A stretch of 50,800 nt of DNA, from IMG/VR virus record IMGVR_UViG_2563366874_000012, one strand, 5' to 3'. This DNA comes from a virus. Taxonomy: Duplodnaviria; Heunggongvirae; Uroviricota; Caudoviricetes. The position numbers and the translations under genes were made by a program. This document shows positions 2,795 to 50,800 of the stretch, piece by piece. The notes under the pieces were generated by a model. The model had not been told where the DNA came from and did no database searches. It was given only the letters and a program-made list of their open reading frames with translations. Position 1 is the stretch's first letter. Each line of letters starts with the position of its first letter.

Positions 2795-5387
2795 TTGCAT
2801 ATTCCTTAGCCCAGCGGGGCAGTGATAATGTCTTAATAGCTGGCCATTCATCGGTATTCAGGCAGTCAGACAGGGTTCGCAGATTGCGGTGATATTCCTG
2901 TTGACCTGCCAGTTTTGCTTCTTCGCCCATCATGAAAATTTCAACCGGATAACGTCCGCATTCAATAGTTGTGCTGGCAACCAGAAAAACGAAAGTTGGC
3001 TGCACTCCAAACAGTGCTTCATAACCGTCACTGTAGAATGCATCCTGAACGTGATAGCGGTAGTCGTAATAAGCGGTTTTGAATCGTTGAATATCCGCCG
3101 TAGTTTTCACGTCCATGATCCAGTGAAATTCAGGGATAATTTTGTCCGGACGGCACCGACACAAAATTCCTGTTTCAGGATCTTCCCAGTAAATTGATGA
3201 TTCAGCGTGTCCGGCGCTTTCAACAAGCCATTGCCCCAGCGGCAAAGCCATAACGCTTTGATACATGAGTTCAATTTTCCGGCCTTCTTCCGCAGTGATA
3301 ACCGTTTTTCCTGTGCTTGCGCATTCCATCAGAAACGCTTTCTCTTCTTCTTTTCCGGCGTTTGTACGGCGGTTAAATTCAGGTGCTACGATAAAGCGGT
3401 TACTGAATTCTTCCGGTTCAAGTACCCGGCAGTGGAAAGCAGTTCCTAAATCGAGCGTTTTTGTCTTTGTGGTGTCCACGGGGGCATTTTTACGCCACAA
3501 ATATAGTGCCGGAGTATCAGCAATGTCATCGAGCTGAGACTTACTGATACCGGGACCCGCGTGGTAATTCTCATTCGAAATTCCGTAATAAATACCTGGC
3601 TCTATGTCTTCTACGATTACGGGATCTGCGACTTCGCCAGTTTCATCACTGCAATCGTGATGCGGATCGCTGCCAGCATTCTCATTGTGCGGATGTTCAG
3701 CGCCTTCCATTTCCTCCGGATCATTTTCCTTAGCTTCAACCTGACTCTCTTCATCGAATGTTTCCTGGTATGTTGCGTCGCCCATCACCGCACCACAGTC
3801 AGGGCAGTTATCCCCGCCAGTCTGGCCGCAGGCATTGCAGGCTATTTCCGGTTCCTGTTGCACTACTGGCTCAGGTTGATTCATATCTGGGCTGGTTTTT
3901 TCCGTTTCTGGCTGGTTCTGGTACACACAATCGCGAGTCTGGATCCCCTTTACCCATTTCGGATCGTTCGGGTCGCTAATTCCGTCAACAAATTCACCAC
4001 GTGATGCAGCAAGCAATTTATCGGCATCGACAGGATTTTTTGATGGAATGTTTTTCCGGGCTTCATGGAGTTCTGCCCGCAGTTCCTGATATTTCGCATC
4101 AACAGAATTTACCTGTGACTGAGCATCCAGCGGCTGCGTGTCCTGATGATGTTCAGTTGCGTCCGGTTCCATTGTTTCAGCCTCTCCCTGTTCAACTGCC
4201 GTTGTTCCAGATGGTTGCGGTTTTTCTTCATCATCCTGTTTTCCTTCTTCTGTTACTCGCTGCGGCATCGGGGCAGAGGAGCGACTGCAGGCAATATCCA
4301 CGATTTCCGGATCAGGGTTGGCATGATCGGTTTCAGTCAGTACTTTGTTCAGATATTCAGTGACGTGCGCGGGGATGACCTCGATCCCAATTGGTGCTTC
4401 TTTTACGGACGCAACCACGATGGCGCGGGAATAATCCAGCCCGCCAGGCATGGTGATGAATTTGTCGCGGAAAACAGAAAAGGGCGGTTTATTTTCAGCG
4501 ATAATTTCCTCAATGCGTTTAGCGTGTGCCGGATGAAGGTTATAGATGTCCAGATCCATTGAACGGGCCAGTACGCCAGTGGCTACGTCGCGCGCCAGTG
4601 ACGTCAGATCGTGTACGAAACCTTCGCCGCGATCGGTGAGGTTTCCGCCGCCAGCATTAGCACCGGAAGCCGTGCGAGTGATGTGTGAAACACGATTACC
4701 CTTCATCCACTCTTTTGTCAGCAGTCCTCGATCGGTGTAGTCAGCGTTCAGGTATGCTTCGAAAAAAGCAGTTATCAGTCCCAGGTTTGAATTACCAGGA
4801 TTAGGGAAAACTTTGTCAGTGTCACGAACCAGTTTGTGGAGTTCGCGAATTTCCAGCGGGTCGAGCAGGCTGGTTTTGTGGGAAACAGCCAGGGCAGTAA
4901 CAGCCGGTAGTTCTTCAGCCCGAGCAATGTGTAATGCCTGGAGTCCGTCGCGTGAAACGTGCGTTACCGGTTTTTCGCTGCCGTGTTGAGCAAGCCAACG
5001 AATGGGCAGTTCCTGGCCAGAAATTGGGAGTAGCATATTCTCCTCAATCTCAGTCATGTCTTCGCCGTTGACGTTGGTATTGCCTTGATAATGAGCGTTG
5101 TCTGGTGCTGCTCCCGGTTTTAGTTCCCATGTCATGGAGTCTTTGCTGAGTTGATAGCGTTCACTCCAGGTAAAATCGATCTCACCTTCAGCGGGCAGGT
5201 CATTAACGACAGGAAAATTCGTGGCAACAGCTTTAAAATAGCTGCTCAGTTTTTTACCTGACTTAACGATCAGGTAGTCCAGAGTGGCACAGGTCGATTC
5301 AAAATCGTTGCTTGCCCACAGGACGACGTCAGGTTCACCGGATGATTTTTTCGCTTTCCGTAACAGGAAGAGTGGTTTTGTGCTCAT
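2787..5387 (-). CDS. recE: RecE exodeoxyribonuclease VIII
   Basis: 866-aa ORF, same length as Rac RecE; acidic central region and C-terminal nuclease domain; recE-recT operon arrangement. Confidence 0.9.
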
Positions 5388-5838: not shown

Positions 5839-6009
5839 TTAAAGTTCATGTGCCATCTGGTCTTTTTCGGCACAAGCTTCACTGCAATATTTTCTCGGTT
5901 CGTCTTTTGATAAAATCCCGTGCATGAAGTGAAGCATTCTTTCAATAGCTTTGCTTTCTTCAACGTCTTTTTTGCAAAGGTGGTAAGCACATTTTATTTT
6001 CTTAGTCAT
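5839..6009 (-). CDS. ydaE: Small Cys/His-rich (zinc-binding type) protein YdaE-like
   Basis: 56-aa [59 protein letters not shown]; start overlaps kilR stop by 1 nt (TGATG). Confidence 0.6.
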   Translation of the reverse strand: MTKKIKCAYHLCKKDVEESKAIERMLHFMHGILSKDEPRKYCSEACAEKDQMAHEL

Positions 6010-6230
6010 CACCATGACTCCGCCTTTACAGGTAAACCATCACAACCGAGGAAGACTTTAATCATGCGGTCAGTAATGCATGTTTTTGTGGTCAGGTTAC
6101 GAATATATAGTTTTCGCTTTTTAATATTGTTTGCCGAGGCAATATATGTCCGGCCTTCATGAAGAACATAATCGCCAGGAGTCACACACTGACGTGGTAT
6201 TTCATCAGTTCCGAAGTGATGTGCAATCAT
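6009..6230 (-). CDS. kilR: KilR cell-division inhibitor (FtsZ-targeting kil protein)
   Basis: 73-aa [52 protein letters not shown]...; Rac gene order. Confidence 0.75.
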
Positions 6231-6671
6231 AATTATCTCCATTTTTACAAATGAATTTTGTTGATGCGGTGCCTGGTGCCTCCAGGTGACTGCAACCAGT
6301 TAACAATTACAGTCGGCTTTCCCACCCAAACCAATAAGGACTAACATGACTTTTAACTGTGCCACGTGCGCTTAGCCGCATTCACCGCATCACAAAATTC
6401 ACTTTAAAAAGGGCGGACATCAGCCGAACTTCAAGAAAAAAACTGATGCCGCCAGGACTACACACAGCAATGTCGTTATTTACAACCGGAGGCGCACTCC
6501 CACCATTTAAATTTAACAGACAAGACCGACTCTTTATGGATATCGGAAATGCGCCTTCGTGTTGTGCCCGGTTTTATTTCACCACCTCCGGGCTTCGGTG
6601 GTCTCGGCTATACCCCTACAGCGAGAGCTTGTGTTAACATTTCAATACCCTTACAGTTGAGAGTTATTGAT

Positions 6672-7747: not shown

Positions 7748-8167
7748 TTAAGAGGCTTTTTGTTTTTTCTTTCGTGCTAACTCTTCGTAAATTGCATTGT
7801 ACTTCTGTTTTTTCTCCTCAAGAGTTTTTAAAAGTTCATCTGTCTCACTGTCAGGGAGCTCGTCCAGAAGGTCAATGATGATTTTTTGTCTTGGATTTAA
7901 CTCCTGATAGAAACGTACCTGTCCACTTTCTTCTGTATCCTCTCCCAAAAGATAGGTTGGTGTTGTTCCAATGAGTGTTGCTAATTCCCTTAATTTCTCT
8001 CGGCGAGGAATTGTTTCGCCATTAAACCATTTGCTAACCGCTTTTGGTGTTAATTTCATTCGACGGGCAATTTCTGCCTGCCTTCCATGTTGTTCATAAC
8101 CAGCGTTTTCACAGGCTAGCGCAAGCCTACTGGCGAACTCTTTACGCGCTTTATCTTCATGAACCAT
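7748..8167 (-). CDS. racR: Prophage repressor RacR (CI-like, HTH)
   Basis: 139-aa ORF with N-terminal HTH (ASRLALACENAGYEQHGRQAEIARRMKLTPKAVSKW); divergent from cro-like ydaS. Confidence 0.8.
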   Translation of the reverse strand: MVHEDKARKEFASRLALACENAGYEQHGRQAEIARRMKLTPKAVSKWFNGETIPRREKLRELATLIGTTPTYLLGEDTEESGQVRFYQELNPRQKIIIDLLDELPDSETDELLKTLEEKKQKYNAIYEELARKKKQKAS

Positions 8168-8246
8168 AAGTTCAATGATATTCGCTCTTGAATGTACTGT
8201 CAGTTCTGTTATAGCATGTACTCAAAGTTCACATTGTGAGGGTGAT
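8168..8246. promoter_or_regulatory. Divergent racR/ydaS promoter-operator region
   Basis: 79-bp spacer containing two ATGTACT copies (8192-8198, 8216-8222) and the palindrome TCACATTGTGA (8229-8239) just upstream of the ydaS SD. Confidence 0.5.
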
Positions 8247-8501
8247 ATGAACCAGAAAACACTTGAAGATGTAATCAAAACTGTTCGCGTTTCTGTTGTG
8301 GCCGACGTTTGTGGTGTCAGCCAAAGAGCAATCTACAAATGGATGGATAACGGAAAATTGCCTCGCACAGAATATACCGGCGAAACAAATTACGCTGAAA
8401 AAATCGCTCATGCATCAAACGGATTATTTTCTGCCGATGTAATTTTAACTATTGGCAGAAATAAAACTACTACGAAAAAGCTGATGGGAGTTGATTCATG
8501 A
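8247..8501 (+). CDS. ydaS: Cro-like DNA-binding protein YdaS
   Basis: 84-aa ORF MNQKTLEDVIKTVRVSVVADVCGVSQRAIYKWMDNGKLPR (HTH); GAGGG SD; divergent from repressor. Confidence 0.75.
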   Translation: MNQKTLEDVIKTVRVSVVADVCGVSQRAIYKWMDNGKLPRTEYTGETNYAEKIAHASNGLFSADVILTIGRNKTTTKKLMGVDS

Positions 8502-40430: not shown

Positions 40431-43400
40431 ATGGGTAAAGGCAGCAGTAAGGGGCATACCCCGCGCGAAGCGAAGGACAACCTGAAGTCCACGCAGCTGC
40501 TGAGTGTGATCGATGCCATCAGCGAAGGGCCGGTTGAAGGTCCGGTGGATGGATTAAAAAGCGTGCTGCTGAACAGTACGCCGGTGCTGGACAGTGAGGG
40601 GAATACCAATATATCCGGCGTCACGGTGGTGTTCCGGGCCGGTGAGCAGGAGCAGACACCGCCGGAGGGATTTGAATCCTCCGGCTCCGAGACGGTGCTG
40701 GGTACGGAAGTGAAGTACGACACGCCGATTACCCGGACCATCACGTCGGCAAACATCGACCGTCTGCGCTTTACCTTCGGTGTGCAGGCACTGGTGGAAA
40801 CCACCTCAAAGGGGGACCGGAATCCGTCGGAAGTCCGCCTGCTGGTTCAGATACAGCGTAATGGTGGCTGGGTGACGGAAAAAGACATCACCATTAAAGG
40901 CAAAACCACCTCACAGTATCTAACATCGGTGGTGGTGGGTGACCTGCCGCCGCGCCCGTTCAATATCCGGATGCGCAGGATGACGCCGGACAGCACCACA
41001 GACCAGCTGCAGAACAAAACGCTCTGGTCGTCATACACCGAAATCATCGATGTGAAACAGTGCTACCCGAACACGGCACTGGTCGGCGTACAGGTGGATT
41101 CGGAGCAGTTCGGCAGCCAGCAGGTGAGCCGTAATTATCATCTGCGCGGGCGTATTCTGCAGGTGCCGTCGAACTATAACCCGCAGACTCGGCAATACAG
41201 CGGTATCTGGGACGGAACGTTTAAGCCAGCATACAGCAATAACATGGCCTGGTGTCTGTGGGATATGCTGACCCATCCACGCTACGGCATGGGGAAACGT
41301 CTTGGTGCGGCGGATGTGGACAAATGGGCGCTGTATGTCATCGGCCAGTACTGCGACCAGTCAGTGCCGGACGGCTTTGGCGGCACGGAGCCGCGCATCA
41401 CCTGTAATGCGTACCTGACCACACAGCGCAAGGCGTGGGATGTGCTCAGTGATTTCTGCTCGGCGATGCGCTGTATGCCGGTATGGAACGGGCAGACGCT
41501 GACGTTCGTGCAGGACCGACCGTCGGATAAGGTGTGGACCTATAACCGCAGTAATGTGGTGATGCCGGATGATGGCGCGCCGTTCCGCTACAGCTTCAGC
41601 GCCCTGAAGGACCGCCATAATGCCGTTGAGGTGAACTGGATTGACCCGGATAACGGCTGGGAGACGGCGACAGAGCTTGTTGAAGATACGCAGGCCATTG
41701 CCCGTTACGGTCGTAACGTCACGAAGATGGATGCCTTTGGCTGTACCAGCCGGGGGCAGGCACACCGCGCCGGGCTGTGGCTGATTAAAACGGAGCTGCT
41801 GGAAACGCAGACCGTGGACTTCAGCGTGGGCGCAGAAGGGCTTCGCCATGTACCGGGCGATGTCATTGAAATCTGTGATGATGACTATGCGGGTATCAGC
41901 ATCGGCGGGCGCGTGCTGGCGGTGAACAGCCAGACGCGGACGCTGACGCTCGACCGTGAAATCACGCTGCCATCCTCCGGCATCACGCTGATAAGCCTGG
42001 TTGACGGACAGGGGAATCCGGTCAGCGTGGAGGTTCAGTCCGTCACCGACGGCGTGAAGGTAAAAGTGAGCCGTGTTCCTGGCGGTGTTGCTGAATACAG
42101 CGTATGGGGGCTGAAGCTGCCGACGCTGCGCCAGCGACTGTTCCGCTGCGTGAGTATCCGTGAGAACGACGACGGCACGTATGCCATCACCGCCGTGCAG
42201 CATGTGCCGGAGAAAGAGGCCATCGTGGATAACGGGGCGCACTTTGACGGCGACCAGAGCGGCACGGTGAATGGTGTCACGCCGCCAGCGGTGCAGCACC
42301 TGACCGCCGAAGTCACCGCAGACAGCGGGGAATATCAGGTGCTGGCGCGATGGGACACGCCGAAGGTGGTGAAGGGCGTGAGCTTTATGCTTCGTCTGAC
42401 CGTGGCAGCGGATGACGGCAGTGAGCGGCTGGTCAGCACGGCCAGGACGACGGAAACCACATACCGCTTCACGCAACTGGCGCTGGGAAACTACAGGCTG
42501 ACAGTCCGGGCGGCAAATGCCTGGGGGCAGCAGGGCGATCCGGCATCGGTATCGTTCCGGATTGCCGCACCGGCAGCGCCGTCGCGGATTGAGCTGACGC
42601 CGGGCTATTTTCAGATAACCGCCACGCCGTATCTTGCCGTTTATGATCCGACGGTACAGTTTGAGTTCTGGTTCTCGGAAAAGCGGATTGCGGATATCAG
42701 GCAGGTTGAAACCACAGCCCGCTATCTTGGCACGGCGCTGTACTGGATAGCTGCCAGTATCAATATCAAGCCGGGCCATGATTATTATTTTTACATCCGC
42801 AGTGTGAACACCGTTGGCAAATCGGCATTCGTGGAGGCTGTTGGCCAGCCGAGTGATGATGCATCCGGCTATCTGGATTTTTTCAAAGGAGAGATAGGGA
42901 AAACCCATCTGGCTCAGGAGTTGTGGACGCAGATTGATAACGGTCAGCTTGCGCCTGACCTGGCTGAAATCAGGACGTCCATTACGGATGTCAGTAATGA
43001 AATCACGCAGACCGTCAATAAGAAACTGGAAGACCAGAGTGCAGCGATCTAGCAGATACAGAAGGTTCAGGTTGATACAAATAATAACCTGAACAGCATG
43101 TAGGCTGTGAAGCTGCAGCAGATGCAGGACGGACGCCTTTATATCGCGGGTATTGGTGCCGGTATTGAGAACACCCCTGACGGCATGCAGAGTCAGGTGC
43201 TGCTGGCGGCAGACAGGATTGCGATGGTTAATCCTGCGAATGGCAACACAAAGCCGATGTTTGTTGGTCAGGGCGATCAGATATTCATGAACGAAGTGTT
43301 CCTGAAATATCTGACGGCTCCCACCATTACCAGCGGCGGTAATCCTCCGGCATTTTCCCTGACACCGGACGGGCGGCTGACGGCGAAAAATGCCGATATC

Positions 43401-43910
43401 AGCGGTAGCGTGAATGCGAACTCCGGGACGCTCAACAACGTCACGATTAACGAGAACTGTCGGGTTCTGGGAAAACTGTCCGCGAACCAGATTGAAGGCG
43501 ATCTCGTTAAAACAGTGGGCAAAGCTTTCCCCCGGGACTCCCGTGCACCGGAGCGGTGGCCATCAGGGACCATTACCGTCAGGATTTATGACGATCAGCC
43601 GTTTGACCGGCAGATTGTTATTCCAGCGGTGGCATTCAGCGGTGCCAGACATGAACGGGAGAATAGCGATACTTATTCGTCATGCCGCCTGATAGTGAAG
43701 AAAAACGGGGCTGAAATTTATAACCGAACGGCGCTGGATAATACGCTGATTTACAGTGGCGTTATTGATATGCCTGCCGGTCACGGTCACATGACGCTGG
43801 AGTTTTCGGTGTCAGCATGGCTGGTAAATGACTGGTATCCCACAGCAAGTATCAGCGATTTGCTGGTTGTGGTGATGAAGAAAGCCACCGCAGGCATCAG
43901 TATCAGCTGA
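40431..43910 (+). pseudogene. Host specificity / central tail fibre protein J interrupted by two in-frame TAG codons
   Basis: One reading frame: 873 codons, TAG (43050-43052), 16 sense codons (QIQKVQVDTNNNLNSM), TAG (43101-43103), then 269 further codons [23 protein letters not shown]...; the track's downstream ORF starts at GTG 43107 with no SD. Confidence 0.8.
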
Positions 43911-43977: not shown

Positions 43978-44577
43978 ATGCGTAAATTATGTGCTGTTAT
44001 TCTGTCCGCAGTAGTCTGGCTGGTTGCCGCTGGTACGCCAGCGAGCGCAGCAGAGCATCAGTCCACACTAAGCGCCGGGTATCTTCAGACCCATACTGAT
44101 ATGCCCGGCAACGATGACCTGAAGGGCATTAACGTGAAATACCGTTATGAATTTACGGACACGCTGGGGCTGGTGACGTCATTCAGTTATGCCAATGCCA
44201 AAGATGAGCAAAAAACGCATTACAGCGATACCCGCTGGCATGAAGATTCAGTGCGTAACCGCTGGTTCAGCATGATGGCGGGGCCGTCTGTACGCGTGAA
44301 TGAATGGTTCAGTGCTTATGCGATGGCAGGTGTGGCTTACAGCCGTGTTTCAACGTTCTCCGGGGATTATCTCCGCGTAACTGACAGCAAGGGGAAAACG
44401 CACGATGTGCTGACCGGAAGTGATGACGGTCGCCACAGCAACACGTCTCTGGCGTGGGGGGCTGGCGTGCAGTTTAACCCGACCGAATCCGTGGCCATTG
44501 ATATTGCTTATGAAGGCTCCGGCAGTGGTGACTGGCGCACTGACGGTTTCATCGTGGGTGTCGGTTATAAATTCTGA
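43978..44577 (+). CDS. lom: Lom-like outer membrane protein (Ail/Lom family), intact
   Basis: 199-aa ORF with signal peptide MRKLCAVILSAVVWLVAAGTPASA and C-terminal beta-barrel signature ...GFIVGVGYKF; flanked by terminators on both sides. Confidence 0.8.
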   Translation: MRKLCAVILSAVVWLVAAGTPASAAEHQSTLSAGYLQTHTDMPGNDDLKGINVKYRYEFTDTLGLVTSFSYANAKDEQKTHYSDTRWHEDSVRNRWFSMMAGPSVRVNEWFSAYAMAGVAYSRVSTFSGDYLRVTDSKGKTHDVLTGSDDGRHSNTSLAWGAGVQFNPTESVAIDIAYEGSGSGDWRTDGFIVGVGYKF

Positions 44578-44630: not shown

Positions 44631-44999
44631 GTGGAGTGGATATGGCAGCAGTAAAAATCTCAGGTGTGCTGAAAGATGGTGCGGGAAAACCAATACAGAA
44701 CTGCACTATTCAACTGAAGGCAAAGCGTAACAGCACCACGGTACTGGTGAACACGGTGGCCTCTGAAAATCCGGATGAAGCCGGGCGTTACAGCATGGAT
44801 GTTGAGCATGGCCAGTACAGCGTCATCCTGCTGGTTGAAGGTTTTCCGCCTTCACATGCCGGGACCATTACCGTCTATGAAGGCTCCAGACCAGGTACGC
44901 TGAATGATTTTCTCGGTGCCATGACGGAAGATGATGTCATGCCGGAGGCATTGCGTCGTTTTGAGGCAATGGTGGAAGAAGTGGCACGCAACGCCGAAG

Positions 45000-45650
45000 C
45001 CGCCTCTCAGAGCGCAGCGGCGGCAAAGAAATCCGAAACTGCAGCGGCATCATCGAAGAACGCGGCGAAAACCTCAGAAACGAATGCAGCTAATAGTGCA
45101 CAGGCGGCAGCGACCTCAAAGACTGCATCGGCAAACTCCGCGACAGCAGCCAAAAAATCAGAAACCAACGCGAAAAACAGTGAGACAGCCGCAAAGACGA
45201 GCGAAACCAACGCAAAGTCCAGCCAGACGGCAGCGAAAACCAGCGAAACGAATGCTAAAGCCAGTGAAACTGCGGCAAAAAACAGCCAGGCTGCAGCAGC
45301 TGAAAGCGAGAGCGCGGCAGCCGGTTCTGCGACTTCAGCAGCTGGATCAGCAACTGCTGCGGCTAACAGCCAGAAAGCTGCGAAGACGAGTGAAACTAAC
45401 GCAAAGTCCAGCCAGACGGCAGCGAAGACCAGCGAAACGAATGCCAAAGCCAGTGAAACTGCGGCGAAAAGCAGTCAGGATGCAGCGGCCCAAAGCGAGA
45501 GTGCCGCAGCCAGTTCTGCAAGCGCGGCGGCTGCTTCTGCCACTGCATCAGCTAACAGTCAAAAAGCAGCAAAAACCAGTGAAACCAACGCAAAGGTGAG
45601 CGAAACAGCGGCTGCGAACTCAGCGAAAGCATCGGCAGCAAGCCAGACGG
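45000..45650 (+). repeat. In-frame tandem repeat region within the tail fibre gene
   Basis: Reiterated AAKTSETNAK(S/A)S(E/Q)TAAK units; about 120-bp near-identical DNA segments around 45213-45330 and 45393-45510. Confidence 0.6.
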
Positions 45651-46763
45651 CAGCTAAAGCAAGCGAAGATGCAGCCAGAGAGTACGCAAGCCAGGCTGCG
45701 GAGCCGTATAAATATGTCTTACAGCCGCTGCCTGATGTGTGGATACCATTTAACGATTCGCTGGATATGATTACGGGCTTTTCGCCATCATATAAAAAAA
45801 TTGTTATTGGTGACGATGAAATAACGATGCCTGGCGACAAGATTGTTAAGTTTAAACGTGCATCGAAAGCAACCTATATTAACAAATCTGGTGTGCTGAC
45901 AGAGGCTGCCATTGACGAGCCACGATTTGAACGTGATGGCCTGCTTATTGAGGGGCAAAGAACAAACTACATGCTCAATTCGGAAAGCCCTGCCAGTTGG
46001 GGGCGATCGTCAAATATGGATGTGCCCGAAACAGGGACGGATAATTTTGGTTTTACCTATGGAAAGTTTGTCTGCAACGATTCTCTGATTGGGCAAACCT
46101 CAGCCATTAATATGGCATCAATTGCTGCAACAAAGTCAGTTGATGTCTCAGGCGATAATAAACACGTGACAACCTCATGTCGTTTTAAAACAGAACTGCA
46201 GGTAAGGTTGCGTATCCGGTTTGATAAATATGACGGTAGCGCAACAACTTTTCTTGGTGATGCGTATATTGATACACAAACGCTTGAAATTAATATGACA
46301 GGCGGTGCTGCCTCAAGGATTACAGCGAGAGTCAGAAAGGACGAAGCTACCGGATGGATTTTTGCAGAGGCAACAATTCAGGCAATTGATGGGGAGTTAA
46401 AAATAGGCTCTCAGATACAGTATTCTCCTAAGCAGAGCGGGGCAACCGTATCTGGTGACTATATTTATCTGGCCACCCCACAAGTAGAAGATGGGCCTTG
46501 TGTATCATCTTTTATTATATCAGGAGCGACGGCGGCGACCCGCGCAAGCGATATAGTTACAGTTCCAATTAAGAATAATCTTTATAATCTTCCTTTTACG
46601 GTTCTTTGTGAGGTACATAAGAACTGGTATAAAACGCCAAATGCAGCGCCACGTGTTTTTGATACCGGCGGTCATCAAACCGGAGCGGCTATTATTCTTG
46701 GCTTCGGTCGTTCAACAGATTACGACGGATTTCCTTATTGCGATATTGGGTAATGACTCCAAC

Positions 46764-47267
46764 TTATTGATAGTGTTTTATGTTCAGATAATGCCCGATG
46801 ACTTTGTCATGCAGCTCCACCGATTTTGAGAACGACAGCGACTTCCGTCCCAGCCGTGCCAGGTGCTGCCTCAGATTCAGGTTATGCCGCTCAATTCGCT
46901 GCGTATATCGCTTGCTGATTACGTGCAGCTTTCCCTTCAGGCGTGATTCATACAGCGGCCAGCCATCCGTCATCCATATCACCACGTCAAAGGGTGACAG
47001 CAGGCTCATAAGACGCCCCAGCGTCGCCATAGTGCGTTCACCGAATACGTGCGCAACAACCGTCTTCCGGAGCCTGTCATACGCGTAAAACAGCCAGCGC
47101 TGGCGCGATTTAGCCCCGACATAGCCCCACTGTTCGCCCATTTCCGCGCAGACGATGACGTCACTGCCCGGCTGTATGCGCGAGGTTACCGACTGCGGCC
47201 TGAGTTTTTTAAGTGACGTAAAATCGTGTTGAGGCCAACGCCCATAATGCGGGCAGTTGCCCGGCAT
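46764..47267 (-). CDS. insB: IS1 InsB transposase ORF
   Basis: 167-aa ORF ...[43 protein letters not shown]... Confidence 0.9.
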
Positions 47268-47461
47268 CCAACGCCATTCATGGCCATATCAATGATTTTC
47301 TGGTGCGTACCGGGTTGAGAAGCGGTGTAAGTGAACTGCAGTTGCCATGTTTTACGGCAGTGAGAGCAGAGATAGCGCTGATGTCCGGCGGTGCTTTTGC
47401 CGTTACGCACCACTCCGTCAGTAGCTGAACAGGAGGGACAGCTGATAGAAACAGAAGCCAC
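47186..47461 (-). CDS. insA: IS1 InsA
   Basis: 91-aa [94 protein letters not shown]. Confidence 0.9.
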
Positions 47462-47792
47462 TGGAGCACCTCAAAAAAACCATCATACGCTAAATCAGTA
47501 AGTTGGCAGCATCACCCGATATTGGAGGAGCTAACAGACGGGTAAACGAAAACGCATCGCTTGAAAAAATGGTTATGGGGATGCGTGTAAAGTCAGAGCA
47601 GTCTACGTGCTCAGTAAGTAACGGGCATATATCCAGCGAAACAAAAACCACATGGTCCTGTATTCAGAACACCGCAATTATCCGTATTGGAGGCCAGACT
47701 ACAGCCGGGTTACGTCATTTATTTGGTCATGTCAGGAATTTCAGAATATGGCACAAGGCATTGACTGATGCTCAGGTGGGGGAGTCAATCTA

Positions 47793-48074
47793 ATGAAAGA
47801 TTTAACACTCAAATTTGCCGACAGGGCCGACTTTTCGGCCTTTATGGAGAGTATTGGCTATTATGATGACGAGTCGATGCAGGATGATATTCTTATTGAC
47901 GTGATAGGTAACGTGTACAAAGAAACCGGAGAACTGACTGAAGATGGCGAACCGGTATGTGTTAAGGAAGACGGATATTTTGTAAACGTGCGCATCATTA
48001 ATGATTCGCAAATATCGTCATTATTCGATGAATACGTGGTTGCTGTTGAGCATCAACTTCGTGGCTGGATGTGA
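47793..48074 (+). CDS. Hypothetical acidic small protein coupled to the tail fibre genes
   Basis: 93-aa ORF MKDLTLKFADRADFSAFMESIGYYDDESMQDDILIDVIGNVYKETGELTEDGEP...; ATG overlaps stf stop (TAATG). Confidence 0.45.
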   Translation: MKDLTLKFADRADFSAFMESIGYYDDESMQDDILIDVIGNVYKETGELTEDGEPVCVKEDGYFVNVRIINDSQISSLFDEYVVAVEHQLRGWM

Positions 48075-48083
48075 GGAAGAAAA

Positions 48084-49124
48084 ATGGCTACATCGACAGT
48101 AATTCCTGATGACATCAAAACGCTAAAATCCGACGTTAGCAAATTAAAAAACGATCAAGGAAGCTACGCAACAAAATTATATGTAGACAGCAAAGATGAA
48201 ATCGTTGGTGACTGGTCTGCTTCATGGTATCAGCAGGTATTGCCAACTAGCGGAGCTATATTTGGGAGAAAACTCCGCTCAACTCACAGGACGGCAGGTG
48301 TTGAGGATGCGTATTGCGAACTATACCTCAAAAAATGGATAGACAGTCCAGGTAACGCAATGGCGCGCCTTAACCTGAACGATAACGGGACAAACATTTG
48401 CTGGGACTTTACCAACCTTTATGGCGGTACGATGATTTTTCCCGGTGACAGCGGATACCTCAAAATGGGTAACTGCCTTATGTCATACAGCAAGCGTGGA
48501 AGTAACGCGCTTATTAAATTTGATTACACCGACACATTACAGATCAAATATGCCAATCATGGGTCAACCATGACATTAAACACACAGGGAACCGCTTATG
48601 CTGGTGTTACTGCTCAATTGTGGGGCAACTCCAGCCGTCCTGTTGTTTATGAAGTCGGTGTTGATGGTGGCGCTTATATGTTCTATGCGCAGAAAAATAC
48701 CGATAACACCTATATGTTAAGCGTTAATGGTGCATGTCATGCCACCGCATTTAACCAGCATTCCGACCGGGATCTGAAAGACAACATTCAGGTGATCGAT
48801 AATGCAACCGACCGCATCCGTAAAATGAACGGCTATACATACACGCTTAAAGAAAACGGTATGCCCTATGCTGGTGTCATTGCACAGGAAGCTCTGGAAG
48901 CAATCCCAGAAGCTGTAGGTTCCGCAATGAAATATCAGGACGGTGCAAGCGGATCGGAAGGTGAAGAAGGTGAACGTTATTACACAGTAGATTATTCTGG
49001 TGTTACTGGCTTGCTTGTTCAGGTAGCCAGAGAGTCAGACGACAGAATAACAGCACTGGAAGAAGAAAATGCAGAATTAAAACAAAGATTATCTGCAATT
49101 GAGGCGACGCTTGCGTCTAAATAA
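48084..49124 (+). CDS. Tail fibre / tailspike-type protein with C-terminal intramolecular chaperone domain (peptidase S74-like)
   Basis: 346-aa ORF; C-terminus ...SDRDLKDNIQVIDNATDRIRKMNGYTYTLKENGMPYAGVIAQEALEAIPEAV...YTVDYSGVTGLLVQVARESDDRITALEEENAELKQRL resembles the autoproteolytic chaperone of phage fibres. Confidence 0.6.
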   Translation: MATSTVIPDDIKTLKSDVSKLKNDQGSYATKLYVDSKDEIVGDWSASWYQQVLPTSGAIFGRKLRSTHRTAGVEDAYCELYLKKWIDSPGNAMARLNLNDNGTNICWDFTNLYGGTMIFPGDSGYLKMGNCLMSYSKRGSNALIKFDYTDTLQIKYANHGSTMTLNTQGTAYAGVTAQLWGNSSRPVVYEVGVDGGAYMFYAQKNTDNTYMLSVNGACHATAFNQHSDRDLKDNIQVIDNATDRIRKMNGYTYTLKENGMPYAGVIAQEALEAIPEAVGSAMKYQDGASGSEGEEGERYYTVDYSGVTGLLVQVARESDDRITALEEENAELKQRLSAIEATLASK

Positions 49125-49130
49125 TATTAA

Positions 49131-49153
49131 GGGGCCGAGCGCCCCGTTTTATT
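49131..49153 (+). terminator. Intrinsic terminator after second fibre gene
   Basis: GGGGC-cgagc-GCCCC followed by GTTTTATT. Confidence 0.5.
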
Positions 49154-49166
49154 GGGTAGGATGAAA

Positions 49167-49460
49167 ATGGATATAACACCTTTCCTTCATGCACTTTGTG
49201 CTGTGGCTGCGCAGGTACTGGTTGGTCTTTTTACCGGAAACTGGGCTTACGGGGCGATAGCCGGTTGTACGTTCTTCATTGCTCGTGAACATACCCAGGC
49301 AGAATATCGCTGGATTGAAATGTTCGGGCATGGCAAGCGTATGAATATGCCGTGGTGGGGTGGTTTTGATCCGCGCGTGTGGGATGTGGCAAGCCTGATG
49401 GATTTTTCTGTGCCGGTGGTGGCTTGTCTGCTGGTCTGGCTGTTGGTTAATCGTGGGTGA
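49167..49460 (+). CDS. Hypothetical small membrane protein
   Basis: 97-aa ORF MDITPFLHALCAVAAQVLVGLFTGNWAYGAIAGCTFFIAREHTQAEYRW...SVPVVACLLVWLLVNRG with two hydrophobic segments; AGGATGA SD-like upstream. Confidence 0.4.
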   Translation: MDITPFLHALCAVAAQVLVGLFTGNWAYGAIAGCTFFIAREHTQAEYRWIEMFGHGKRMNMPWWGGFDPRVWDVASLMDFSVPVVACLLVWLLVNRG

Positions 49461-49923
49461 AAAAGGGAGTTGTAAACGCAACACAGGAAGAGGTGCCGCT
49501 TCAGGTTGCTGGGAATAAGCGCCGGGGTCTGTTAAATCATGCCAATACGCTAATCGAGCCAGATATTGAGTAGCCTGCAGTCCGTCATGGCGTAATCGTT
49601 TTGTGATATGCTGCACGCCGTATGCAAGGAGCATGATTGCGCTCGGCTGGCGAGCGCTCGATAGTGCTACTATTGAATGATTGCTAGTCTAGGCGGATTG
49701 TACTTAAGTAATATGACGGTTCAAGGCGTTTAATCTGAAACCAGCCACATATTAGCCTTTTCAAACATTTCCTGAACACTCAGGCTTACCTGCTCTTTCT
49801 CGTGCTTGCTGGCATTTGTGTTGAGCGCCGGTGAATACTCTTACTCAACACTCCCAGAATTATATCTGTTGCATCAGGCAGACCATCAAAATTCTTTTGT
49901 CATAAACGAGTTCCACGAATAAT

Positions 49924-49942
49924 GTGCCCTATGGTAGGGCAC
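49924..49942. repeat. Perfect palindrome GTGCCCTA-tgg-TAGGGCAC in non-coding region
   Basis: 8-bp arms with 3-nt centre; 64 nt downstream of the stop of the minus-strand gene at 50006; no U-run, so operator-like rather than terminator-like. Confidence 0.5.
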
Positions 49943-50005
49943 TATTGATATGAATGAGTAGCTAAAAAGATTTTTCGTTATGTATTAATGTATCTGTCAC
50001 TTATT

Positions 50006-50800
50006 TTATAGTAAAGATGATATGCCAGCAAGAAATGGAGTAAATACTGTAATGTGTGCAGATACATTATTAATAAAGTCCTTATATGCTTCTTTAAAAC
50101 AGCCGCTTTGGTGACTGGCTGCCAGTGCCTGTACATTATCTATAAGGTGTGATTCTGTCGCGCCATCAAAGTTTTTCGATTTTATTGCCTCAATCATTTC
50201 ATTAAATATTGTGGGCTCATTATAATTTGTCGTAGTAGTTGCCGTAGCACCTGAAGAATGTATATTGATACTAGAACCGGAAATTCCACTGACATGAATA
50301 TTAGCTTCTTGTTTCATAAGAGGTAAACCATTCTCCATCTTGTATAGGTCACTATCTTGTAGCATCTGCAATGTGATACGTACTGCTGCTAATAGTTGTT
50401 CTTGCTTTTTGAATAAGGAACACATCTGTTCTACAGACCAAAGCTGAACTGCATTTTCTTCGCATGTTTTTTTAGCTATATTTGGCACTTCCGAATCATA
50501 ATTACCATAAACCCAAGTGTCCTTGAATCTTTCGATAATAGCTGTCAACGTTGGAAATTTACTGAAATCACTATTAATGGATAGTAACTCATCAGACATA
50601 TAAAGTGCCATATCTCTGCCTTCCGCATATACTGCTTCCACTTTATTCCGTGTTGCAAATGGTATTCTTGAAATAAAACGAAAATCCTCTTCATTTTTTA
50701 AATGGACCCAGTCTTTATCAAAACGGCTAAATTCGTACCCTATCGATAACAGTCTACTTATATATTGGGCTACTGATTCCAAATCTTTTCTTATGTCCAA
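50006..50800 (-). CDS. AT-rich hypothetical protein, 5'-truncated by window edge
   Basis: ORF open to the window end (at least 264 codons); C-terminal hydrophobic tail HITVFTPFLAGISSLL; composition much more AT-rich than the phage structural genes. Confidence 0.45.
   Translation of the reverse strand: MDIRKDLESVAQYISRLLSIGYEFSRFDKDWVHLKNEEDFRFISRIPFATRNKVEAVYAEGRDMALYMSDELLSINSDFSKFPTLTAIIERFKDTWVYGNYDSEVPNIAKKTCEENAVQLWSVEQMCSLFKKQEQLLAAVRITLQMLQDSDLYKMENGLPLMKQEANIHVSGISGSSINIHSSGATATTTTNYNEPTIFNEMIEAIKSKNFDGATESHLIDNVQALAASHQSGCFKEAYKDFINNVSAHITVFTPFLAGISSLL

Follow-up and report, generated by a model that had tools for sequence, protein, structure and literature searches.

The DNA at positions 47793–49460 of the window, i.e., of the whole 50,800-nucleotide stretch that was analysed (Caudoviricetes; IMG/VR record IMGVR_UViG_2563366874_000012), probably encodes the outer half of a composite side tail fibre, either two-segment or branched. 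The host element is a decaying E. coli prophage, and the module is ordinary and widely shared: several phage families have a lateral-fibre module of three genes, of which it is the usual distal part. The original prediction had described the locus as a swapped receptor-binding cassette downstream of an IS1-disrupted fibre, and all of the features that it had named are present at their predicted positions. They are ordered along the window as follows.

44636–46753, plus strand: Stf-like side tail fibre, codons 1–705, ending at a TAA created by the IS1 junction
46749–47516, minus strand: 768-bp IS1 element carrying insA/insB in this orientation; a 793-aa ORF reappears when it is excised
47517–47793, plus strand: severed 3' end of the fibre gene, codons 706–793 plus stop, the end of a lectin-like (Laminin_G_3-like) domain
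47793–48074, plus strand: 93-aa acidic fibre accessory protein (phrog_1361), whose start overlaps the fibre stop
48084–49124, plus strand: whole ORF of the 346-aa protein (phrog_4563 with C-terminal Peptidase_S74)
48084–48188, plus strand: aa 1–35 of the 346-aa protein, a putative docking/coiled-coil segment beginning MATSTVIPDDIKTLK..., assigned from cross-family conservation
48189–48761, plus strand: aa 36–226 of the 346-aa protein, beta-rich receptor-binding region, assigned from allelic variation, AlphaFold strands and PHROG tail-fibre matches
48762–49124, plus strand: aa 227–346 of the 346-aa protein, S74 intramolecular chaperone domain, assigned from Pfam PF13884 and the S16 gp37 alignment
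49131–49145, plus strand: short GC hairpin with GTTTTATT behind it, weakly terminator-like, assigned from the sequence and a shuffle test
49167–49460, plus strand: 97-aa three-helix membrane protein (phrog_1443; AlphaFold model)

The 93-aa, 346-aa and 97-aa proteins have hundreds of conserved homologues each, and they are thus real genes rather than chance ORFs. The locus occupies the same position as lambda Stf/Tfa, after J and lom, and its fibre has the same N-terminal Stf domain. In contrast to lambda, Stf has here a lectin-like end and is followed by the extra 93-aa and S74 genes, with no Tfa-type chaperone; the predicted lack of lambda's fibre-assembly gene agrees with Pfam, NCBIfam and PDB searches, in which no Tfa-type gene was found. 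The upstream fibre (phrog_1419) starts with a phage_tail_N tail-attachment domain at aa 5–134 (Pfam PF08400, E = 7.1e-67) and continues as an Ala/Ser-rich shaft with a 63-aa repeat and then a conserved junction segment, aa 358–460. An NCBIfam GTA_spike_fiber match covers aa 437–637.

The 346-aa protein matches phrog_4563, 'tail fiber protein', over its full length (E = 3.5e-220) and Peptidase_S74 (PF13884) at aa 227–278 (E = 2.6e-14, 53.7 bits against a cut-off of 22). Ser227 (48762–48764) and Lys232 (48777–48779) lie in the motif HS|DRDLKDNI, of which SDRDLKDNI aligns with SDRRIKKDI of S16 gp37 (PDB 6F45). Both residues are at least 90% conserved in 28 homologues, among which the S74 domain is near-invariant and G264, I266, A267 and Q268 of the GVIAQ motif at aa 264–268 (48873–48887) are invariant; a C-terminal helix spans aa 304–345. 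PMC3742440 describes the roles of such a Ser/Lys dyad, with the lysine five residues past the cleaved serine, and of GVIAQ as a trimerisation motif. Pfam match, catalytic dyad on alignment, GVIAQ and helix together bear out the S74-type chaperone that had been proposed. K1F endosialidase, T5 pb1 and S16 gp37 have the same PF13884 domain, the dyad five apart, GVIAQ and the C-terminal helix, but in these proteins one long chain includes the virion anchor as well, whereas here the domain belongs to a short separate distal piece.

Upstream of the chaperone domain, aa 1–35 are the sole part common to all distal-protein alleles across phage families, with a low-confidence helix predicted at aa 11–23 (AlphaFold, pLDDT about 45–56). 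Beta strands are predicted in aa 36–226, where aa 36–160 are variable and the distal tip, aa 160–226, is more conserved. The AlphaFold2 monomer model, built on the 28-sequence alignment, is poor (pLDDT 56.9, below 50 in the chaperone region), and a Foldseek search with it against the PDB returned nothing significant, with a weak match to T4 gp34 (E = 7e-3, TM 0.2).

The exchange of alleles was followed in 80 IMG/VR loci whose 93-aa gene is at least 94% identical. Stf residues 461–793 have at least five alleles in this set and the distal protein at least three, in free combination, and Stf 358–460, the 93-aa protein and the distal N-terminus are conserved. At least three classes of the 346-aa gene sit between near-identical 93-aa and 97-aa flanks; aa 36–226 are 63–70% identical between alleles, or without detectable identity, inside these constant flanks. 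The 346-aa cassette is also found in a virulent Nonagvirus at 94% DNA identity. Because the Stf C-terminal domain and the distal protein swap alleles independently, the 346-aa gene is, as judged from these comparisons, a real second host-range cassette. The prediction of a host-range module thus stands as regards an exchangeable cassette, but not as regards a self-standing or lambda-specific swapped fibre, since the same three-gene module is found in several phage families.

All four genes are found intact, at about 98% DNA identity, in phages that have been isolated (Tritos, 2G7b, PhiR63_1 and HannyBb), of which Tritos and 2G7b are lambdoid. Virulent phages have homologous sets of fibre C-terminus, protein of about 92 aa and distal protein, namely the T1-like KarlJaspers, VogelGryff and ESCO3 of the Queuovirinae and the T5-like IrisVonRoten, and the order of these sets, i.e., fibre C-terminal region, ~92-aa gene and protein with distal motif and chaperone, is matched at this locus. 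The fibres of these phages are alike only over the C-terminal ~430 aa, where residues 358–460 are the best-kept stretch, and the sole common features of the distal proteins are the M(A/V)T.T.IP.DI..LK motif and the C-terminal S-x4-K chaperone domain.

The closest described system is that of IrisVonRoten (Tequintavirus, BASEL), in which Gp22, Gp23 and Gp24 have the same three-gene order. In the BASEL-2 paper, Gp24, with an intramolecular chaperone, is placed by a multimer model as the distal receptor-binding protein on the proximal fibre Gp22, which has a galectin-like C-terminus. Compared with the genes studied here, the proximal fibre is about 63–80% identical over the last ~240 residues and 26–80% over the ~430-aa region, the small protein (92 aa) is 39% identical, and the distal protein likewise has the N-terminal motif and the C-terminal chaperone. 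However, Gp24 has 574 aa, two receptor-binding domains and a T shape, against the single short 346-aa form here, and IrisVonRoten is virulent and T5-like, with another tail-attachment end and no 97-aa gene. The LtfA/LtfB fibre of the T5-like phage DT57C resembles the proposed arrangement in architecture, being a two-protein fibre in which genetics and cryo-EM place the second receptor-binding protein on the first and not on the tail; ltfA (gp108) and ltfB (gp107) are not listed with a small gene between them, unlike the two fibre genes here.

We think that the following scheme accounts best for these data. The proximal piece would be the Stf-like protein, anchored at the tail tip by its N-terminal domain and ending in its own variable lectin-like domains. 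The 93-aa protein, made in step with Stf through the start/stop overlap, may act on or at the Stf junction, aa 358–460, as an assembly factor or small connector. The 346-aa protein should trimerise with the aid of its own S74 domain, which should self-cleave at Ser227 through the Ser227/Lys232 dyad, giving a mature product of ~226 aa. This product would dock by its conserved N-terminal 35 residues and expose a second receptor-binding domain, exchangeable independently of the first. As judged from related lateral fibres, it probably recognises a surface glycan, for example O-antigen.

The 93-aa ORF is coupled to the fibre stop as had been predicted, its ATG overlapping the fibre TAA (ATGA-type overlap), and the protein is indeed acidic (pI 4.05; 21 D/E against 7 K/R). 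Homologues lie directly 3' of lateral-fibre genes in 183 phage records of lambdoid, T1-like, T5-like, Queuovirinae, Dhillonvirus and rV5-like phages. No match was obtained in Pfam, NCBIfam or the PDB, even at E up to 10, nor in PADLOC, and in the same four resources the 97-aa protein does not resemble a known assembly factor either, in line with the original prediction. The T4 long tail fibre has small hinge proteins, gp35/gp36, and it is conceivable, if somewhat doubtful, that the 93-aa protein is likewise a structural connector of the distal protein to the proximal fibre rather than a folding chaperone. In every family its gene separates the two fibre genes; it is closely coupled to the stop codon of the fibre and is conserved while both neighbours vary. 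However, phage 21-type loci (28 of 78) retain the 92-aa gene without a distal protein, which ties the small protein to the proximal fibre, so connection cannot be its sole function.

The 97-aa protein would be a separate temperate-phage membrane protein at the end of the receptor-binding module. Its predicted membrane nature is in agreement with an AlphaFold model (pLDDT 92.3) of three helices, at residues 4–23, 26–53 and 74–96, of which the first and third are hydrophobic and the second is so in its first half. A near-invariant loop reads AREHTQAEYRWI..FG.GKR.NMPWWGGFD.RVW. The family comprises about 425 clusters at 50% identity, always stand-alone, with the core motif RE..QAEYR.IE; a search of its profile against 1.84 billion representatives gave no domain fusions, and the remote members had no Pfam match. 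Pfam, NCBIfam, PADLOC and the PDB gave no match to the protein itself, phrog_1443 has no function assigned, fold searches returned generic helical bundles only, and a literature search on tail-fibre-linked exclusion proteins turned up no mention of this family.

A factor coupled to the receptor, as first proposed, is unlikely from these comparisons: identity of the 97-aa protein is 88–96% among lambdoid phages and does not fall below about 80% in other temperate phages of E. coli, even where the receptor-binding protein beside it differs or is missing. Strict linkage to S74 fibres is ruled out, the 97-aa gene lying directly after the 92-aa gene in 28 of 78 loci. At least five unrelated tail architectures are represented among the temperate phages that carry it (lambdoid, P22-like, P2-like and others), and the gene stands there at the very end of the receptor-binding module, a position that fits a lysogeny-associated gene. 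We think that the protein most likely acts on a conserved step of the host envelope or of phage entry, and probably without being specific for one receptor.

Whether this amounts to superinfection exclusion is a more tentative matter. It is possible, though on balance improbable, that these small membrane proteins form an undescribed family and are expressed by the prophage to block a conserved step of entry or modify the envelope in a general, not receptor-specific, manner. Besides the highly conserved loop, the distribution points this way: close full-length copies (about 80% identity or more) are found only in temperate phages and prophages, just 3' of receptor-binding genes and often beside int or other conversion genes. 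Examples are the P22-like Gally and 611R6, the copy of the latter adjoining an O-acetylase, an SSU5-like plasmid prophage, a P2/HP1-like Leclercia prophage, phiHAP-1, where the copy lies between tfa and the sheath gene, and a Comamonas prophage, where it follows J; the virulent phages that were examined lack the gene behind this fibre module. Against exclusion, the protein has no similarity to known exclusion or defence proteins in Pfam, PHROG or PADLOC, a crude scan between the hairpin and the 97-aa start revealed no sigma-70-like promoter, a chromosomal, non-prophage copy occurs in Aeromonas, and some virulent phages contain copies that are distant or incomplete. Moreover, its start lies 10–13 nt past the preceding late gene in many loci, so the 97-aa gene is probably co-transcribed with the tail genes.

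As for the 346-aa protein, it most likely hangs on the IS1-disrupted fibre for its anchorage. Were it instead an independent second fibre on the tail tip or baseplate, it would not need Stf and could survive the IS1 insertion. Such a role would suit a separate gene that has a ribosome-binding site and a folding chaperone of its own, and several independent fibres are present in many phages; we nevertheless consider it quite unlikely, as Pfam recognises in the protein the S74 domain alone and no tail-attachment domain, and the distal N-terminus is common to phages with unrelated tail tips (lambdoid, T1-like, T5-like and Seuratvirus), whose only other shared parts are the fibre C-terminus and the 92-aa protein. 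Still less probably, the protein is not part of the virion but serves the upstream fibre as a chaperone in trans, as the annotations 'endosialidase chaperone' and 'putative lateral tail fiber chaperone' in ESCO3, KarlJaspers and VogelGryff and the short alleles of 225–234 aa, mostly chaperone domain, might suggest: S74 domains fold and cleave their own carrier, according to work cited in PMC3742440, ~190 beta-rich residues precede the cleavage site and vary between alleles as receptor-binding domains do, and the upstream fibre ends in lectin-like globular domains, with no triple-beta-helix-type domain detected by Pfam or NCBIfam.

The disruption by IS1 is confirmed: the single copy in the window, a 768-bp element with terminal inverted repeats, insA/insB and a target duplication of 8–9 bp (CGATATTG at 46741–46748 and 47517–47524, flanks CGATATTG(G)), splits a 793-aa Stf-like gene, and its removal with one repeat copy gives a 793-aa ORF that is 98.9% identical to the Stf homologue of phage Tritos. 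The severed end corresponds to positions 702–793 of phrog_1419 (E = 6.5e-40) and weakly matches Laminin_G_3 in Pfam (E = 0.0012). The insertion is, from its sequence context, recent and unique, because none of 5,426 complete RefSeq E. coli genomes contains its junction, and the sequence on its right side shows no difference from uninterrupted copies (100% identity). That the cassette 'remains intact' is correct for its unbroken sequence but is no sign of function, the recent and unique event ruling out a reading of intactness as selection. IS1 severs the last 88 residues of Stf and uncouples the downstream genes and, as gpJ of the prophage also has two amber codons, the cassette is probably idle. 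This is not certain, in that Stf 1–705 keeps the junction segment and reaches into the start of the lectin-like C-terminal region.

The tail of this prophage is already broken in two genes, so the module matters little for the window itself. Its value is practical and lies in phage engineering and annotation. In many lambdoid prophages of E. coli, the side fibre has two receptor-binding parts that can be exchanged independently, and the conserved joints that would hold both (Stf 358–460, the 93-aa protein and aa 1–35 of the distal protein) mark natural splice points at which lambda-type particles could be retargeted. An annotation as 'endosialidase chaperone' or 'hypothetical protein' conceals this two-part architecture, and the 93-aa and 97-aa proteins are common and conserved.

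The terminator predicted between the 346-aa and 97-aa genes is present as a hairpin followed by GTTTTATT, but it is only plausible as such because the hairpin is weak: GGGGC/GCCCC forms five pairs, of about −10 kcal/mol (z = −0.75 against shuffles). It accompanies the 346-aa allele and is missing after the 234-aa allele. From the 346-aa stop there are 27 nt to the listed TTG start of the 97-aa ORF and 42 nt to an ATG, against 10 nt in related loci.

The tail-fibre region of this lambdoid prophage lies at the end of the window, where its features are arranged as follows:

40431–43910: gpJ, first in order
43978–44577: lom, between gpJ and the fibre gene
44636 (start) to 46753 (ORF stop, at the IS1 edge): gene of the side tail fibre, Stf
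46749–47516: IS1, 768 bp, transposase genes on the minus strand, flanked by CGATATTG(G)
47793–48074: 93-aa acidic protein (pI 4.05), its ATG overlapping the fibre stop codon
48084–49124: 346-aa protein, second ORF after the fibre
49131–49145: short GC hairpin, then a T-run
49167–49460: 97-aa hydrophobic protein

The original prediction had described this layout accurately, apart from the terminator that it placed before the last gene: the hairpin is weak, with five pairs and about −10 kcal/mol, and does not rise above shuffled sequence.

The 346-aa protein gives a full-length match to a "tail fiber protein" family in PHROGs, and Pfam places a Peptidase_S74 domain at residues 227–278 (E=2.6e-14, well over threshold). 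Work cited in PMC3742440 gives two sequence hallmarks for this self-cleaving chaperone domain: a dyad of Ser and Lys separated by five residues, where the serine is the site of the cut, and the trimerisation motif GVIAQ. The predicted S74-type chaperone has both, as S227 and K232 (context HS|DRDLKDNI) and GVIAQ (264–268). Dyad and motif can be aligned with the fibre tip of S16 gp37 (PDB 6F45) and are invariant or nearly so among 28 homologues. The AlphaFold model of the monomer is poor (pLDDT 56.9); it has beta strands over residues 39–214 and a long C-terminal helix at 304–345, and a fold search with it returned the T4 gp34 fibre as the only match, a weak one.

The temperate isolates Tritos, 2G7b, PhiR63_1 and HannyBb carry the four-gene set intact, with a DNA identity of about 98%, and among 5,426 complete E. 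coli genomes 338 have it at no less than 80% coverage. The virulent Nonagvirus ESCO3 shares the fibre C-terminus, the 93-aa gene and the greater part of the 346-aa gene at 94% identity. A search with the 93-aa protein as query retrieved 183 phage records, covering lambdoid (including phage 21), T1-like, T5-like, Queuovirinae, Dhillonvirus and rV5-like phages. The gene directly follows a lateral or side tail fibre gene in all seven loci inspected, and most of the records listed place it within or next to a fibre annotation. Alignment of the modules across families revealed clearly homologous small proteins and fibres in which the C-terminal ~430 residues, starting at QPLPDVWIPFNDSL, are the only common part, best conserved at Stf residues 358–460. 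In the third proteins, a common N-terminal motif, M(A/V)T.T.IP.DI..LK, is followed by a variable middle and a chaperone domain with S-x4-K. According to the BASEL papers, the lateral fibres of such siphoviruses may comprise two or more proteins; in IrisVonRoten, Gp24 was modelled as a distal receptor-binding protein on the proximal fibre Gp22, whose C-terminal domain is galectin-like. In DT57C, genetic and cryo-EM evidence indicates that the first fibre protein carries a second one. The locus probably encodes a composite lateral tail fibre of an already known type, here in a defective prophage.

In the arrangement that we propose, Stf would be the proximal fibre, and the 93-aa protein would be made in step with it and act at its junction. 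The 346-aa protein would trimerise via its own chaperone domain, cleave at Ser227 and dock by its N-terminus, displaying a second receptor-binding domain whose receptor, by analogy with related lateral fibres, is likely a glycan. Of 78 loci, 28 are of the phage 21 type and keep the 92-aa gene without any distal protein; this links the small protein with the proximal fibre, and disfavours a role as connector only.

The predicted host-range cassette was borne out in 80 loci from IMG/VR, chosen for a 93-aa gene with 94% identity or more to that of the window. About 70 of them have a third ORF in range, with S-x4-K in all but a few truncated ORFs; most belong to a class of 346 aa, with about 40 loci, or one of 234 aa, with about 25, and these two classes have only the first 32 residues in common. 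The 97-aa gene comes next in every locus extending far enough. Segment-by-segment comparison gave at least five alleles for Stf residues 461–793 and at least three for the distal protein, combining freely between pieces that stay conserved, namely Stf 358–460, the 93-aa protein, the distal N-terminus and the 97-aa protein. At the sequence level, this pattern argues for two independently exchangeable receptor-binding parts on one fibre, and we think that the conserved pieces are likely its contact surfaces.

When IS1 is removed together with one copy of the repeat, a 793-aa ORF reappears, with 98.9% identity to the Tritos Stf homologue. The IS1 junction occurs in none of the 5,426 complete RefSeq E. 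coli genomes, where all matches end exactly at 46749 with a best flank identity of 98.9%, and the source strain appears to be alone in having the insertion. The 3.3 kb to its right are 100% identical to uninterrupted loci, an identity that points to a recent insertion; the intactness of the cassette, which the original prediction pointed out, therefore carries no functional message. The truncated Stf (1–705) retains the junction segment and lacks 88 residues of the lectin-like end, and the 93-aa gene is no longer translationally coupled to it. Moreover, gpJ contains two in-frame amber codons, 17 codons apart:

43050–43052: codon 874, CAG to TAG
43101–43103: codon 891, TGG to TAG

The 97%-identical intact gpJ of E. 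coli TUM14771 has Q and W at these codons. A second tail gene is thus defective, and the tail module is decaying. The Ala/Ser-rich fibre shaft (about 45176–45595) contains a 189-bp (63-aa) direct repeat of about 83% identity. Several RefSeq genomes annotate the same fibre as two pieces, an N-terminal pseudogene and a "phage head spike fiber domain" protein, for which the repeat may be the cause.

The 97-aa protein yields a confident three-helix AlphaFold model (pLDDT 92.3) and no meaningful match in family, defence or fold libraries. Its family, with about 570 close relatives and 425 clusters at 50% identity, consists of stand-alone proteins, each either without a name or annotated as a "hypothetical protein"; from Escherichia to Aeromonas and Comamonas, the loop AREHTQAEYRWI..FG.GKR.NMPWWGGFD.RVW hardly varies. 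The gene keeps a consistent position directly after receptor-binding genes:

Lambdoid phages: directly after receptor-binding genes
P22-like podoviruses: after the tailspike, adjoining int
SSU5-like plasmid prophage: directly after receptor-binding genes
P2/HP1-like Leclercia prophage: directly after an S74 fibre
phiHAP-1: directly after receptor-binding genes
Comamonas prophage: directly after receptor-binding genes

In the P22-like podovirus vB_EcoP-611R6 (3845–4288), a 37-aa remnant with 95% DNA identity to the 3' end of the window's S74 gene precedes the family member, and the 97-aa gene was apparently transferred along with the final part of an S74 fibre gene. A 37-aa ORF similar to this remnant is also present in PhiR47_1 (7947–8390).

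A receptor-matched exclusion or immunity factor, as had been suggested for the 97-aa protein, is unlikely, since its sequence stays conserved (88–96% identity in lambdoid phages, about 80% or more in other temperate phages of E. coli) where the adjoining receptor-binding protein varies or is missing. The gene was not found after the fibre module in the virulent phages examined; partial, distant copies exist in some virulent phages. A 58%-identical member on the Aeromonas rivipollensis chromosome (6001–6309) lies between pirin and RIO1-kinase genes, with no phage genes near it; phages are therefore not the only carriers of the family. The protein may have a general membrane function associated with lysogeny.

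Downstream of the 97-aa gene, on the minus strand, the region 49690–50800 holds a DinI-like pseudogene, labelled from the identical region of TUM14771, and next to it an AT-rich gene for a 264-aa hypothetical protein (50006–50800), for which no Pfam family was found and PADLOC gave a weak match to PDC-M14B (E=0.0017). In related genomes, sitABCD comes next.
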